Source: Candidatus Thorarchaeota archaeon
Lineage (GTDB): Archaea > Asgardarchaeota > Thorarchaeia > Thorarchaeales > Thorarchaeaceae
Assembly (NCBI GenBank): GCA_029855935.1
Contig: JAGSHN010000004.1
Coordinates: 118,022 to 182,021, forward strand
DNA length: 64,000 bases
Direction: 5' to 3'
The first letter of the stretch is position 1; each line of letters opens with the position of its first letter. Of the stretch, positions 39,531 through 51,887 are shown piece by piece. A program made the translations under genes and the position numbers. Under the pieces are notes generated by a model. That model ran no database searches. It was not told where the DNA came from and worked only from the letters and a program-made list of their open reading frames with translations.

Positions 39531-39895
39531 TCCGTCGTTGTAATACCATAATTGAAGAGTTCAGAACAGGTGTTCTATCGCTTGAGGACCTATCGGTGTA
39601 TATTCTGTATGTATACGATTGCATCTCTACGGGAGCAAAGAATGCTAGACGTATATCGTTCACTAAGAGGCTCTTTGGGTATACCTACAGATGGCGTACT
39701 CGAGGCGGTTGGAAGACAAAACGCAAAGACGGGTTGTTGGATCTCTGTCCTGGTGCTAGACGAATCACCGATTCTGCGATCCTAGTCCCTGAAGAATGCC
39801 AATCAACATTCGACACACTCTTCACACAGTATCGTGATATTCTCAAAGTTTCCAGCTTTGCAGTTATGGAGATTATCTCAGAACACGTGTTCTAG
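39527..39895 (+). CDS. Small hypothetical protein, possible Cas2/VapD-like ferredoxin fold
   Basis: YILYVYD N-terminal strand, F.KRLFGY...GLL...SAILVP; start uncertain. Confidence 0.45.
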   Translation: MIRRCNTIIEEFRTGVLSLEDLSVYILYVYDCISTGAKNARRISFTKRLFGYTYRWRTRGGWKTKRKDGLLDLCPGARRITDSAILVPEECQSTFDTLFTQYRDILKVSSFAVMEIISEHVF

Positions 39896-40089
39896 AGCCT
39901 GTGGACCCCCTTATTTCGTGTGGAAACGATGGATCCTCTCGAGTCTGAAAGATGACCAAAAATATAAATAGCTGATTCTGCAGCTGATAATCATCTACAT
40001 TTCATTCACGACTTAGAAGTCACTGAAAGAAACTACATTTTGATTCTCCACTGGAAGTAGAGGGGAGTTGGGGTAGAACACGTGTTCTA
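39880..40089. other. Candidate replication origin (oriC)
   Basis: Inverted ORB-like elements at ~39904-39927 (-) and ~40045-40066 (+) flank an AT-rich ~117 bp spacer; identical AGAACACGTGTTCTA at both outer edges. Confidence 0.65.
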
Positions 40090-40159
40090 ACTCCATCCGA
40101 CCGCAAGCTTGATAGACTCGTTGTAGCGCGTCGGGAGTGAACGAAGCGGAGGTCGTTGT

Positions 40160-42055
40160 TTGGCAAAGCTAGAGGATCTCCTGGATACGACGATTGGAAG
40201 ACGAGTATTGCTCTTGGCTAACGAGGCCATCGCTCGGGGAGTACTGGAAGCTGGTGTCCGCTTAGTTGCTCTGTATCCTGGGACACCGAGTAGCGAGATT
40301 GGAAACAGTCTGTTCAAGATGGCTCCACATATTCCCAATTTCTATTTTGAATTCAGTACAAACGAGAAGGTCGCTCTTGAGGTGGCCGGTGCTGCTGCAA
40401 TTGCTGGCGTCCGTGCGATGATGGTCTGCAAGGGTCCCGGCCTCAACGTCGCGGCTGATCCTTTCTTTTCGCTTGCATACGTCGGAGTGCGGGCTGGGCT
40501 GGTCATAGTCGTTGCTGACGACCCCGGGATGTGGAGCTCACAGAATGAGAACGACTCGAGATACTACGCTCTGATGGGAAACATGCCTATGGTAGAGCCA
40601 GCCGATCCCGCTGAGGCCAAGTCCCTATTATTGGCAGCATACGATCTGTCGGAGGAGCTCGAGCTTCCTGTTTTATTCAGAACCACAACACGAGTGAACC
40701 ACTCGCGGGCAGGTGTTGAGCTCGGCCCCATCCGTGACCGTCCCGACAAAGTGGAATTTGTCAAAGAACCGTTCCGTTTTGTTCCCGTTCCGGCAGTCGC
40801 TAGGACACGGCATCCATGGTTACTGAAACAAATGGAACAGGCCCGTGAAATCTCTGAGTCCTCTTCCCTGAACTTCTGTATCGGCCGTGAAGAATGCGAA
40901 GTTGGTATCATCACGTCGGGGGTTTCCTATAACTACGTCCTCGAGGCCATTCAAGAGCTCGACCTCGAGGCAGAGGTCTTCAAGATAGGCATCACCAATC
41001 CGTTGCCACGTGACAGTATCGTCGATTTTCTGAGGCGTCACAAGAGGATCATTGTTGTAGAGGAGCTTGAACCCTATCTGGAGCGACAGGTGAGGGCCTT
41101 TGCTCAACATCAGGATGTTGCTGTGAATATCTATGGAAAGGAGGACGGATTGTTCCCACGTGTCTACGAATACAGCACCCAGACCGTAGTTGATGCATTG
41201 ACCAAGATCTTGGGTAGGCCAGCGCCGATTGATCTGACCTCGATACAAGAAAAGGAAAAGCGATTGCCCGACCTCCCTCCGCGTCCGCCACTACTTTGTC
41301 CTGGCTGCCCTCACAGGGCGACATATTACGCAATCCGCGTTGTAACTCGCGGAAAGGCTGTATACCCCTCTGATATTGGATGCTACACATTGAGTATCGC
41401 ACCGCCATTGGAAACAGCCGATATTCTGTTTGACATGGGCTCGTCTGTTACGACTGCCTGCGGAATTGCACAAGTGACCGGTCAAGATGTCGTGGCGACA
41501 ATCGGGGACTCGACGTTTTTTGCGTCTGGGCTTCCAGGCCTTGTGAACGCTGTCTACAACCAGCATCCAATCGCTCTTGTTGTACTGGACAATCGCACGA
41601 CTGCAATGACCGGGCACCAGCCACATCCTGGTACTGGAGTTACGGGGATGCACCAGAAGGTAAATCCTATTGATATCGAAAAGGTCTGTCGTGGTCTGGG
41701 TGTGGAGTGGGTGCGAACCGTTCGTCCTTTTGAGTCACTAGCAAAACTTGTGGCGGATGTCCGCGAGATGTTGGAGTGGGTGCGCGAGAACAAAGCACCC
41801 GCAGTACTTGTTTCGCGTGAGCCCTGCGCATTGCTAACTGCTGCAGAGCGCAGACGTAGTGGGGAATCACCGCCTCCATATTACGTTGATCCTGAAGTCT
41901 GCACTGCCTGCGGCCGTTGCCTGAATCGTTTCGCCTGCCCAGCGATGTATCTTGATACCGAAACTGGCAAGGCCGTGATTGACGAAACGCTATGCAATTT
42001 TTGTGGCGTGTGCGTATCGGTGTGTCCGCACGGTGCAATTAAGAGGAGAGAGTAG
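40160..42055 (+). CDS. iorA: Indolepyruvate:ferredoxin oxidoreductase alpha subunit
   Basis: NEAIARG, YPGTPSSEI, NEKVALE, CPGCPHR, DIGCY, GDSTF, C-terminal 2x[4Fe-4S] motifs. Confidence 0.95.
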   Translation: MAKLEDLLDTTIGRRVLLLANEAIARGVLEAGVRLVALYPGTPSSEIGNSLFKMAPHIPNFYFEFSTNEKVALEVAGAAAIAGVRAMMVCKGPGLNVAADPFFSLAYVGVRAGLVIVVADDPGMWSSQNENDSRYYALMGNMPMVEPADPAEAKSLLLAAYDLSEELELPVLFRTTTRVNHSRAGVELGPIRDRPDKVEFVKEPFRFVPVPAVARTRHPWLLKQMEQAREISESSSLNFCIGREECEVGIITSGVSYNYVLEAIQELDLEAEVFKIGITNPLPRDSIVDFLRRHKRIIVVEELEPYLERQVRAFAQHQDVAVNIYGKEDGLFPRVYEYSTQTVVDALTKILGRPAPIDLTSIQEKEKRLPDLPPRPPLLCPGCPHRATYYAIRVVTRGKAVYPSDIGCYTLSIAPPLETADILFDMGSSVTTACGIAQVTGQDVVATIGDSTFFASGLPGLVNAVYNQHPIALVVLDNRTTAMTGHQPHPGTGVTGMHQKVNPIDIEKVCRGLGVEWVRTVRPFESLAKLVADVREMLEWVRENKAPAVLVSREPCALLTAAERRRSGESPPPYYVDPEVCTACGRCLNRFACPAMYLDTETGKAVIDETLCNFCGVCVSVCPHGAIKRRE

Positions 42056-42060
42056 GTATC

Positions 42061-50522: not shown

Positions 50523-50582
50523 ATATTGAGTACCGTCACGGGAGCATCTTGAACCTAAACATCTCTACAACATGCGTACTAC

Positions 50583-51239
50583 GTGCGAGGGATATCATTG
50601 AGCAAGGTTCTTCCAGGAACAAAGGCAACGCGAATGGAGCTTCTTCGACTTAAGAACAGGACCAAGCTGGCTGAGCGTGGCCACGATCTCCTAAAGGAAA
50701 AACGGGACTCACTGATCATGGAATTCTTCAATACAATTGCCGAGATGAAGGAGATTCGTCAGCAGGTTGAAAGCGCCCTTGCCGAGGCATTCTCTTCACT
50801 CACCCAGGCCAAGATGATAATGGGGCCCGCACGTGTCATAGAGTTCGCGTATTCTAGTCAGGTTGAAACGCGTCTCGAAACAACCACGCGCTCAATGATG
50901 GGTGTTAGAGTTCCAGTGATGTCACTTCAGCAGGATGTACCTGAGCTTCCGTATTCATTGCCCGATTCGAGTGTCAAGCTTGATATTATGACCTCGAAAT
51001 TTGTGGAGGCCCTACGTGCTATAGTTCGCTTGGCTGAGGTGGAATCGACAGTTCGAAGATTGGCGCTTGAGATCGAGAGAACAAAGCGAAGAGTGTCAGC
51101 CCTTGAGGCGGTTGTGATTCCGCGGCTCGAAGCAACTGTTCGGTTTATCAAGCTGGCCTTGGAAGAGCGGGAGCGGGAGGACTTCTATCGTATAAAGCTC
51201 GTAAAGTCACGAATCTCAGAGCGCCAAGATGCCGAGTAG
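50583..51239 (+). CDS. atpD: A/V-type ATP synthase subunit D
   Basis: TRMELL.LK...A.RGH.LLK.KRD.L, MGV.VP, EI..TKRRV.ALE..VIP, EREREDF. Confidence 0.93.
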   Translation: MRGISLSKVLPGTKATRMELLRLKNRTKLAERGHDLLKEKRDSLIMEFFNTIAEMKEIRQQVESALAEAFSSLTQAKMIMGPARVIEFAYSSQVETRLETTTRSMMGVRVPVMSLQQDVPELPYSLPDSSVKLDIMTSKFVEALRAIVRLAEVESTVRRLALEIERTKRRVSALEAVVIPRLEATVRFIKLALEEREREDFYRIKLVKSRISERQDAE

Positions 51240-51283
51240 CAGTGCACCATTTCTGTAGTGTCCGCCTAGTCAAACAAGGTTCT

Positions 51284-51664
51284 CTATCTATGCTTGAGTT
51301 TAAGAATGGCCGCTGCCAAGTCTCCCTCTGTTTCACGTAGCGCCTGCATTGCCTCCTCAATACTGGCTCCGGTCTGCTGTGCTACGAGTGCAGCATCCTC
51401 TACGGGAATCTCCATGCCCGGTGTCTGCTTCTCTTCTCTCTCCTCCGGTTCTCCTCTAATCGCTCTCTCCCTTTTCTCGCCCGTGACTTGGTACGACTCG
51501 ACTCCTGCCTGCCGAATCAGCATCACTTGAGGCCTAGTCACGACCCATTCTCGATCTTTGAATCTAAAGATGACCTCCTCGACGCCAGTAACCTCCTTCT
51601 GCTCTATTCCCATCTTTTTCATGAGCCGCGCAATCTGTCTTGGTGACATCCTTCTTGATCCCAT
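51284..51664 (-). CDS. nac: Nascent polypeptide-associated complex protein
   Basis: PRQ..R.MKKMGI, YQV.G, UBA-like ED..LVAQQTG..GDLAAAI. Confidence 0.92.
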   Translation of the reverse strand: MGSRRMSPRQIARLMKKMGIEQKEVTGVEEVIFRFKDREWVVTRPQVMLIRQAGVESYQVTGEKRERAIRGEPEEREEKQTPGMEIPVEDAALVAQQTGASIEEAMQALRETEGDLAAAILKLKHR

Positions 51665-51887
51665 TCAACCACCTGCCCCACTCGACCACCAGTTTCAATA
51701 AAAAACCTGCCGCAAGGACAGTGAGATGGTTTTTCGTTTCGCGTTCGGGAGTGGAGGAAACTCCTGCGCGTAGGACCTGTTGACCTAGCTCGGGTAGATG
51801 TGGGGTGGGTGCCAGTGAAGTGGGTGAAATGCGTATTACCAGTATTACGGCCACTGAAATTATCGAGGGACTTATTTCAGCTTCTAT

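Follow-up and report, generated by a model that had tools for sequence, protein, structure and literature searches.

We found an array of short symmetric boxes, adjoining a candidate replication origin and a conserved two-gene operon, in the chromosome of a Thorarchaeota archaeon. We give a probability of about 0.4 to the reading that a centromere-like nucleoprotein array forms here on the chromosome, flanking the origin, and would fold the origin-proximal DNA for segregation or positioning, or for organisation of the origin. The repeated cis element, T-GTAWTAC-A, has two-fold symmetry. Each cluster holds 2–3 boxes in a register of exactly 9 bp, and the clusters are evenly spaced, ~0.6–1 kb apart (spacing CV 0.52, versus 0.91 for random placement). 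The features of the locus are listed in Table 1.

The window, by which we mean the whole 64,000-nt stretch analysed, contains 19 exact copies of GTAWTAC, 16 of them in the zone at 39540–51848. The sequence-only reading had noted 16 copies in ~12 kb and three in the remainder, and the recount gives the same numbers. Shuffles that preserve local dinucleotides yield 3.1 ± 1.6 copies per 64 kb, and GTAATAC was the top-ranked 7-mer in an unbiased scan. The whole genome (2.97 Mb) has 72 copies, and the zone, with a ~49-fold enrichment, is the sole cluster, a single peak adjoining the oriC candidate. The 56 copies beyond the zone are as many as a Markov model predicts (54–66), and therefore look like chance. 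A 27-bp-wide PWM trained on relatives only found 19 sites genome-wide, 19 of 19 inside the window. The motif is not uniformly frequent across the genome; uniform frequency was the outcome that the earlier reading had named as contrary to its proposal.

Table 1. Features of the locus, in window coordinates
Feature	Position	Strand	Description
Heptamer zone	39540..51848		16 exact GTAWTAC in 13–14 clusters, mean spacing ~0.8 kb
Box cluster 1	39540..39546		10 nt past aminotransferase stop, upstream of orf122; position conserved in relatives
orf122	39596..39895	+	conserved small protein of ~99 aa, GTG start at 39596; ORBs always adjacent
Left palindrome AGAACACGTGTTCT	39880..39893		partner at 40074–40089
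Origin core (candidate)	39907..40065		inverted ORBs 39907–39924 (−) and 40047–40065 (+) around AT-rich tract
Right palindrome TAGAACACGTGTTCTA	40074..40089		
Box in IorB	42074..42080		codons 5–7 (SNT), variable N-terminus; relatives have one or two boxes
Double box GTAATAC gt GTCATAC	42742..42757		between 3' ends of IorB and HypF
Box in HypF	43048..43054		~aa 719
Double box in HypF	43539..43554		aa 555, C-I-T codons
Double box in HypF	44212..44227		indel-rich loop, ~aa 329, V-I-P
Triple box	45215..45238		10 bp upstream of HypF start; genome's top-scoring site, 25.6 bits
orf141	45476..45901	+	conserved protein; homologues found only in same-family loci
Box at orf141 3' end	45889..45895		
orf173	46107..46628	+	all-α model, UPF0251/DUF134-like (sigma-70 region 4-like), C-terminal helical hairpin
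Double box	46631..46646		directly past orf173 stop
Double box	47058..47073		upstream of ACS gene
Double box in ACS	48035..48050		I-I-S-N-T codons, aa 305–309
Inverted box pair	48607..48631		18 bp apart, between 3' ends of ACS and small-protein genes
Small RHH-like protein	48739..49044	−	101 aa; C-terminal strand-helix-helix
AAA+ ATPase	49045..50019	−	324 aa; Walker A GPVGSGKST, Walker B FIED, sensor-2 GNPRDIR
Promoter cluster	50043..50067		GTAACAG / GTAGTGC / GTAATAC in 9-bp register, between TATA-like box and ATPase start
Small 3-TM protein	50241..50522	+	divergent from ATPase operon, upstream of AtpD
Double box, exact	51833..51848		between NAC start and PAN stop; right edge of core zone
Outlying double box	59842..59857		17.4 bits; 8 kb right of zone

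The array positions are shared by all 16 same-family genomes examined, as is the synteny of the zone with housekeeping genes. Every one of these 16 loci holds 10–28 boxes, over a GC range of 38–52%, and the clusters number 11–23 over 10–16 kb. Double boxes with at most one mismatch lie around the ATPase gene (12/12 in relative G003 and 24/24 in G012), and seven of eight exact double boxes are in the zone in G005, G010 and G011. The double box at aa 555 of HypF is retained in 14 of the 14 family genomes with HypF aligned there, and the exact ACS box in 16 of 17 family sequences. Sets of C/R/S/G-N-T codons retain GT-AAT-AC, and intragenic boxes are also placed in indel-rich loops. The encoded residues differ between relatives where the DNA box stays the same, which shows that selection acts on the DNA itself, even within housekeeping genes.

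Arrays are restricted to lineages with the Thor-type small protein; orf173 is present in all lineages. The distant lineage L025, with an ATPase 46% identical and the same tail on the small protein, has 14 boxes in 4.3 kb beside the same operon, dense in a 950-bp AT-rich non-coding spacer (22–26% GC) adjoining the ATPase gene. In families f21 and f7, whose small proteins have different β-strands, a few GTAWTAC boxes also lie beside the ATPase gene. In family f2 the Thor-type operon is present and the array absent. Wherever the array occurs, the operon, orf173 and an ORB-type origin are found with it.

The earlier observation that the zone begins at an oriC candidate is borne out by an inverted ORB pair, unique palindromes and a switch of AT skew at its left edge. 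The ORB pattern has eight matches genome-wide, three of them at 36833–40065, and two of these are inverted around an AT-rich tract. The 12-mer core of the palindromes has no third copy in the genome, the sign of the AT skew switches at the origin core, and a cdc6 gene lies 15.5 kb from it. The inverted ORBs are conserved in relatives and in other Asgard families. The operon, orf173, orf122 and the ORBs travel together in six Asgard families; linkage of the locus to the origin is seen in f1, f3, f7, f19 and f21, and in f2 via orf122, and in five families the operon is within 1–10 kb of inverted ORBs. At the level of sequence, 39907–40065 has the features of an archaeal ORB-type origin and is a credible candidate for one. 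The array is confined to one side of this origin. The palindromes, orf122 and orf173 were absent from the sequence-only reading.

The ATPase is single-copy, ~80% identical across the family, and belongs to a narrow Asgard family of 24 representative clusters. It contains Walker A, Walker B, sensor 1, an Arg finger (R220) and sensor 2 in a helical lid, together with an ExeA-like N-terminal G-x(4)-PF motif; G74/G76/K77, R220 and R279 are invariant. Its closest solved relative is the ORC1/Cdc6 AAA+ module, in an alignment spanning Walker A to sensor 2. Profile matches to ORC1 (E 4e-9) and TnsC (6e-5) extend over the entire AAA+ base and lid, PDB profiles match ORC1/Cdc6/RFC/TnsC, and the Pfam matches are AAA_22 (27.4 bits, cut-off 27.0), AAA_16 and NB-ARC. 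Profile, Pfam and motif evidence place the ATPase in the ORC/Cdc6–ExeA–TnsC neighbourhood, away from ParA, in agreement with the ExeA/TnsC clade named earlier. The acidic pair of Walker B is E-D, not D-E, which fits a slow ATP switch. No winged helix is present in the ATPase, whose 324 residues stop after the lid.

Several known families were considered for the ATPase and rejected. A ParA/SegA-type partition ATPase does not agree with the classical Walker A, GPVGSGKST rather than the deviant KGGxxK[ST], or with the AAA_22/ORC1 matches. An Orc1/Cdc6 initiator would carry a winged helix, and the TIGR02928 score is 14.6 bits against a cut-off of 181; true Cdc6 genes elsewhere on the contig reach 302–423 bits. 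For an ExeA/GspA or PEP-CTERM ATPase (TIGR03015) the score is 23.5 bits against 324.5, and neither a PG_binding domain in the ATPase nor secretion genes in the operon were found. The distant match P0145 does carry a PG_binding domain. A TnsC/TniB/MuB transposition ATPase was set aside on the conserved housekeeping synteny in 16 genomes, and no transposase or integrase was found among the zone genes scanned against Pfam.

The small-protein gene directly abuts the ATPase gene (49044/49045), and the pair is conserved, so the tightly coupled operon described earlier stands. The protein has an invariant N-terminal L-x-K-Y-R tail, followed by a charged, disordered linker and a β-α-α C-domain. This pattern agrees with the proposed tailed RHH protein, but we sought a significant match of this f1-type protein to any RHH family or structure and found none; we call it RHH-like. 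The sole such match is that of the f7-type positional counterpart to Pfam RHH_1 (6e-5), and profile comparison among the three small-protein types detected no link. The small proteins carry a conserved basic motif at the N-terminus that is particular to each ATPase subfamily.

The box cluster at the operon promoter, also anticipated by the sequence-only reading, is found 42–76 bp upstream of the ATPase start, directly downstream of a TATA-like CTTAAAG, and in all family genomes at 16–57 bp upstream of the ATPase. Repeated boxes on the operon's own promoter are a trait of type Ib and SegAB-like systems, and the cluster is likely an autoregulatory operator.

Orf173 is linked to the ATPase in every lineage examined, and in family f7 forms one operon with ATPase and RHH genes. 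Five of 17 members match PF02001 weakly (best E 0.005), one matches Sigma70_r4_2 weakly (0.097), several members of its cluster bear the JGI label UPF0251, and the recognition helix is conserved in all lineages. Orf173 is a predicted DNA-binding protein with a UPF0251-like HTH. The divergent 3-TM protein gene is probably a neighbour and not part of the system; the minus-strand ORFs 50016–50264 and 50099–50407 are spurious, the conserved gene there being the plus-strand 50241–50522.

In the centromere-like reading, dimers of the small RHH-like protein would occupy the boxes in a cooperative manner, like MetJ, omega or SegB on their sites, and binding to the promoter cluster would autoregulate the operon. 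Orf173 is a less likely binder, made possible by the boxes near the ATPase in f21 and f7 and by its universally conserved helix. The conserved K-Y-R tail may engage the ATPase, which as a slow ATP switch might oligomerise or bridge between clusters, and this would gather the 12 kb next to the origin into a single body for chromosome positioning or segregation, or for organisation of the origin domain. A partition-system function is plausible. Against it we counted that members of the ATPase clade (ORC, TnsC, STAND-like) are known as switches and loaders rather than as segregation factors, that the array is one-sided, that f2 has the operon alone, and that the f1-type small protein matched no RHH family significantly. 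The partition-like architecture with an AAA+ motor that was first proposed retains its conserved operon, unique arrays, origin link and promoter array; its RHH assignment lacks a significant match.

Known systems resemble this locus in part. Type Ib cassettes (ParF–ParG, and delta–omega of pSM19035) have an NTPase gene followed by that of a small RHH protein with a flexible N-tail, and omega binds 7-bp heptads on the operon promoter, which provides both autoregulation and a centromere. The gene order, the tailed (here RHH-like) protein and the short promoter repeats are alike, but our ATPase is of another class and outside that family, and the repeats extend over >10 kb of chromosome and inside genes instead of forming one contiguous upstream array. 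MetJ is an RHH dimer that reads a palindromic met box and binds tandem boxes cooperatively; the tandem palindromes and the fixed short register (8 bp for MetJ, 9 bp here) are shared, whereas MetJ is the repressor of a dispersed regulon with a co-repressor and the boxes here form a single locus, no regulon, with an ATPase partner. ParB, a CTPase with an HTH, loads at 16-bp parS sites and slides away from them; these sites mark the origin region for segregation and SMC loading. The several palindromic, often intragenic, origin-proximal sites are similar, but a ParB or ParA homologue is not part of this locus. The ATPase resembles ExeA in its N-terminal G-x4-PF motif, AAA_22 match and COG3267 labels, and ORC1/Cdc6, ExeA/GspA and TnsC/TniB in the match over AAA+ base and lid and the G-(D/N)-(A/P)-R sensor 2; it differs from ORC/Cdc6 in having no winged helix, from ExeA in having no peptidoglycan-binding domain or secretin context, and from TnsC/TniB in that no transposase was found among the Pfam-scanned zone genes, and its Walker B reads E-D.

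SegAB of Sulfolobales pairs SegA, a ParA-type ATPase, with the RHH protein SegB (10.1101/2025.02.07.637068, PMC8682754). The SegB sites are palindromes, 83% of them inside genes; they gather close to segAB, and bridging forms loops between sites 1 kb apart (10.1101/2025.02.07.637068). Both are archaeal chromosomal NTPase operons with a small RHH-type (here RHH-like) protein and palindromic sites upstream of the operon, and in both many further sites are intragenic and clustered nearby, our ~1 kb spacing being compatible with bridging and looping. Here, however, the NTPase has the classical Walker A, the Arg finger and the sensor 2 of an AAA+ protein, and SegA is a ParA with a deviant Walker motif; a 7-bp unit in 9-bp phased arrays stands against a 13-bp palindrome, and one locus of 12–40 kb against 30–50 sites around the chromosome. 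A third conserved partner (HTH) and tight origin linkage further distinguish our locus.

We consider it unlikely, though worth weighing, that the box-bound complex and the ORC1-like AAA+ protein control replication at the adjacent ORB origin, by aiding or limiting Orc1/Cdc6 or MCM loading, by sequestering the origin after firing, or by titrating an initiator, much as datA/DARS or SeqA act; in L025 the compact array might serve as a separate origin that has an initiator of its own. The kinship of the ATPase to ORC1/Cdc6, the closeness of operon and zone to the origin, and the L025 array, which recalls archaeal origin–initiator pairs, speak for this explanation, and a UBP-type origin-binding nucleoid protein offers a precedent (PMC12141716). 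Unlike initiator boxes, however, the sites are even over 10–16 kb, mostly off the DUE and intragenic; canonical Orc1/Cdc6 genes and ORBs are already present; and the ATPase lacks the winged helix and scores far under the orc1/cdc6 family cut-off.

Quite improbable is local transcription control, with the small protein or orf173 repressing the neighbours (IOR, HypF, ACS, AtpD, NAC) and the ATPase unrelated. Autorepression is classic for RHH proteins, and roughly half of the clusters lie between genes, several of them on promoters (ATPase, HypF, ACS). Such control would not explain why intragenic boxes are retained at a coding-sequence cost, nor the regular spacing and the clusters at 3' ends between convergent genes; the PWM found no sites elsewhere in 3 Mb, and the neighbour genes are functionally unrelated. 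That the boxes have no dedicated function, and merely reflect base composition or codon use, restriction-modification or methylation, or the remains of a mobile or defence element, is hardly credible and largely refuted. GTAWTAC is shaped like a type II recognition site and the region is below the genome in GC, but outside the zone the box is neither avoided nor enriched, the shuffles fall far short of the observed count, the array persists from 38 to 52% GC with changing amino acids, and the housekeeping synteny is conserved, integrase and transposase not being found among the Pfam-scanned zone genes.

To our knowledge, the mechanism of chromosome organisation and segregation in Asgard archaea is not known, and our literature search found no description of a ParA-independent, AAA+-based system of this kind. 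The locus offers a sharply defined cis element and 12-kb domain, along with three candidate proteins. The array is also a sequence signature for finding the origin region in Thorarchaeota MAGs, and shows that a DNA-binding code can run through housekeeping genes. Together, an origin, an array resembling a centromere and an ATPase akin to ORC1 bear on a link between origin recognition and chromosome marking before eukaryotes. The more specific proposal, that some Asgard archaea have a regional centromere built from phased boxes, an RHH adaptor and an ORC1/ExeA-clade AAA+ protein in place of ParA, actin or tubulin, is still more tentative. If true, DNA-segregation or origin-domain machineries would gain a fourth NTPase class, this one built on an ATPase that resembles initiators, in the lineage nearest to eukaryotes.

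The heptamer GTAWTAC (the box) occurs 19 times in the 64-kb window, and 16 of these exact copies lie in the zone at 39540–51848, as the sequence-only reading had counted for GTAATAC/GTATTAC, with three elsewhere. Dinucleotide-preserving shuffles give an expectation of 3.1 ± 1.6 per window. Across the source assembly (G000; 2.97 Mb, 32 contigs) we found 72 copies and a single cluster, bearing out the proposed single genome-wide peak; the zone is enriched 49-fold over the genome, and an unbiased scan returned GTAATAC as its most enriched 7-mer. The 56 copies outside the zone match the 54–66 expected from third- to fifth-order Markov models, so these remaining copies look like chance: we found no genome-wide avoidance of the box, and its being rarer than the reversed pattern is compositional. 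A 27-bp weight matrix, trained solely on relatives' sites with G000 excluded and used at a cut-off of 14 bits, located 19 sites in the whole genome, all inside the window. Exact double boxes (two boxes in 9-bp register) number two, three and three in the whole genomes of relatives G005, G010 and G011; all are on the ATPase contig and seven of the eight are in the zone. When one mismatch is tolerated, all 12 in G003 and all 24 in G012 fall within 28–40 kb around the ATPase gene. These counts confirm that the array of clustered boxes is unique to the ATPase locus in other family members too. An alternative motif in the order-level relative G019, GTASTAC, is unclustered and was rejected. Scanning the zone for Rfam families and tRNAs gave no matches.

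From a pool of 288 boxes, drawn from the window together with 16 relatives, we obtained a two-fold symmetric element, T-GTAWTAC-A, with mirror-symmetric flanks and a central base divided between A (145) and T (143); degenerate box copies lie 9 bp to either side in the pooled alignment. Close exact boxes are 9 bp (18 cases) or 18 bp (two cases) apart, and none are 7, 8, 10 or 11 bp apart. The clusters follow one another at a mean spacing of 0.6–1.3 kb with a coefficient of variation of ~0.52, against 0.91 under random placement, and are evener than random in every genome, these tests not being independent of each other because the genomes are related.

We fetched 20 kb around the ATPase gene, which is single-copy and 78–92% identical within the family, from 16 same-family genomes. 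Each locus carries 10–28 boxes at a GC content ranging from 38 to 52%. Measured against the genome-wide density of 0.45–1.0 boxes per 10 kb in four of the 16 genomes, this is a roughly 16- to 24-fold enrichment of the zones. The loci share a conserved gene order (orf122, ORBs, IorA, IorB, HypF, orf141, orf173, ACS, small protein, ATPase, AtpD, NAC, PAN) and carry the boxes at the same positions. The other zone genes are ordinary ones (indolepyruvate oxidoreductase, HypF, ADP-forming acyl-CoA synthetase, A-ATPase subunit D, NAC, PAN and MBF1). At IorA residue 354 and at the N-terminus of IorB, the leading residue may be C, R, S or G, all with NGT codons, and is followed by N-T, a codon choice that retains GT-AAT-AC. 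An indel-rich HypF loop contains GTA-ATA-Cnn, and in ACS 16 of 17 family sequences have AGT-AAT-AC unchanged, with adjacent synonymous sites variable. We take these patterns as direct evidence, read from the alignments, that selection acts on the DNA itself inside genes. Two family MAGs without the ATPase (G017 and G141) also lack HypF and the orthologous ACS, indicating that the whole region is unassembled and making the ATPase-less comparison uninformative; possibly its deviant composition escapes binning. Most family genomes have an extra ~410-aa gene, unassigned to any family, between orf173 and ACS, with 3–5 box clusters in and around it. The source genus is without this gene, and its orf173–ACS gap is 500 bp.

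An oriC candidate had been placed at the start of the zone, and several features found there agree. A loose ORB pattern has eight matches in G000, three of them at 36833–40065; a 12-bp palindrome with two occurrences in all of G000 brackets the ORB pair; the AT skew turns from positive to negative at about 150–157 kb of the contig, where the pair sits; and a cdc6 gene lies 15.5 kb away. Together these make a putative origin well supported at the sequence level. Near the better-scoring Orc1/Cdc6 gene, 146 kb from the pair, the pattern found no ORB. The eight matches include a near-consensus solo ORB, 3 kb left of the pair. Along G000:C17 1–182021, of which the window covers 118022–182021, GC drops steadily on the approach to the origin region, from 55–56% to about 51%.

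Coordinates of features at the ATPase locus and its relatives (window positions unless stated)
Feature	Position	Strand	Remarks
Conserved origin module	39564-40089; loci L003-L016, L018, L019, L032-L038		orf122, GAACAYRTGTTC palindromes, inverted ORBs, AT-rich tract
Solo ORB	36833-36851		TCCAGTGGAAACGAAGGGG
Orc1/Cdc6 genes on contig	G000:C17:11109-12224; window 23262-24353		423; 302 bits to TIGR02928
Weight-matrix sites >14 bits	16 in zone; two at 59842/59851; one at 29152		
ATPase gene	49045-50019	-	
Conserved 93-aa three-TM protein gene	50241-50522	+	between ATPase and AtpD
Stand-alone A-ATPase subunit D gene (AtpD)	50583-51239		directly downstream of three-TM gene
Extra ~410-aa gene	L010 (reverse-complemented) 10799-12019; L009 10934-12190; L012 10904-12181		
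L025 dense phased array	11353-12303 (GCA_021498085.1, JAIZWM010000001.1)		950-bp non-coding spacer, 22-26% GC

The ATPase barely reaches the Pfam AAA_22 cut-off and falls below those of the orc1/cdc6 and PEP-CTERM ATPase families. Its family is narrow, with 134 near-length relatives, nearly all labelled Thorarchaeota, and 24 clusters among 1.84 billion representatives. With the family profile, ORC1 is the top match (E 4e-9, spanning Walker A to sensor 2), followed by Cdc6, RFC and TnsC; the N-terminal motif is ExeA-like and a winged helix is absent. The proposed AAA+ assignment is supported, in the ORC/Cdc6-ExeA-TnsC neighbourhood. Walker A is invariant, as are the Arg finger and the sensor-2 Arg. 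In Walker B the acidic pair is E-D in Thorarchaeota, D-D in families f7 and f19, and the canonical D-E in f3, f21 and distant homologues (alignment A1), a variation among lineages that suggests tuned, slow hydrolysis. In one distant homologue, P0142, the C-terminus is extended by 70 aa; the extension is winged-helix-like by eye and is not confirmed by Pfam. The contigs carrying distant homologues P0125, P0139 and P0142 are short and showed no gene neighbourhood that could be compared. Upstream of the ATPase, two minus-strand ORFs of 82 and 102 aa are spurious; the plus-strand three-TM gene replaces them and leaves a 220-bp divergent promoter region. There a TATA-like element and the start of the ATPase gene bracket a box cluster, in line with the array that the sequence-only reading placed in the operon's promoter region.

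The 101-aa small protein abutting the ATPase begins with an invariant tail (L4-K6-Y7-R8), after which come a charged linker that varies and a C-domain that is conserved. In the monomer model (pLDDT 65), this domain runs as an extended segment and then as helices 59–72 and 76–91, an RHH-like pattern with an N-L-S helix cap. Foldseek with this model gave no match at E <3, PDB profile searches with the alignment gave zero matches, and RHH_1 matched solely the positional counterpart in f7. Of the tailed RHH protein first proposed, the tail stands and the modelled pattern is RHH-like; family and structure searches left the RHH identity of the Thorarchaeota protein unconfirmed.

Full-length ATPase orthologues occur in 6 of 27 sampled Asgard families, and a small protein lies downstream in all six. 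These small proteins fall into three sequence types, each type conserving a basic N-terminus of its own, and hhalign detected no signal among them. Near the ATPase lies orf173, a predicted DNA-binding protein, UPF0251-like and confidently modelled as all-alpha, which in f7 shares one operon with the ATPase and RHH genes. Against the PDB its model gave only weak TFIIB/cyclin rows (E 0.02) together with generic helical hairpins, and PDB profile searches with its alignment returned zero matches. Within 1–10 kb lies orf122, followed in five families by inverted ORBs around an AT-rich tract, in most of these also with the palindromes; in a sixth, f2, orf122 was the sole one of these elements found. 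Clusters feature-similar to orf122 occur in Aenigmatarchaeota and Methanobacteriota. One to three boxes flank the ATPase gene in f21 and f7, f2 has one, and f3 and f19 have none nearby. In the distant lineage L025, whose ATPase is 46% identical and whose small protein has the same tail, 14 boxes lie within 4.3 kb, among them the dense array, which separates the small-protein gene from orf173, and one box on the promoter. We found no ORB or orf122 homologue within 10 kb of this array; a Cdc6 gene lies 10 kb upstream. The spacer might serve as a compact centromere or as a new type of origin.

MetJ and omega sites are two-fold symmetric boxes on a 7-bp scale, each spanning one major groove and set in a short fixed register. 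SegB sites are built likewise (10.1101/2025.02.07.637068). The box described here has this form, and arrays are restricted to genomes with the Thor-type small protein; both points favour the RHH-like protein as the probable box reader (about 60%). A less probable reader is orf173, whose putative recognition helix is kept in all lineages, including those that have a few promoter boxes and a different small protein. Some other protein is an unlikely reader.

The main rival to a segregation or organising role is that the array and ATPase control the adjoining origin. Plain control of a regulon, and equally an artefact, fits poorly with an array that is intragenic, unique and regular. In architecture the locus resembles SegAB and type Ib par cassettes, from which it differs in NTPase class, box code and its single regional array, and also in the third partner and the origin linkage; text searches of a paper library found no description of such a system. 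Our best reading is that the locus is a centromere-like or origin-domain-organising nucleoprotein array. The promoter boxes would let the operon autoregulate, the adaptor's tail would recruit the initiator-like AAA+ switch, and the recruited ATPase may then bridge or coat the evenly spaced clusters.
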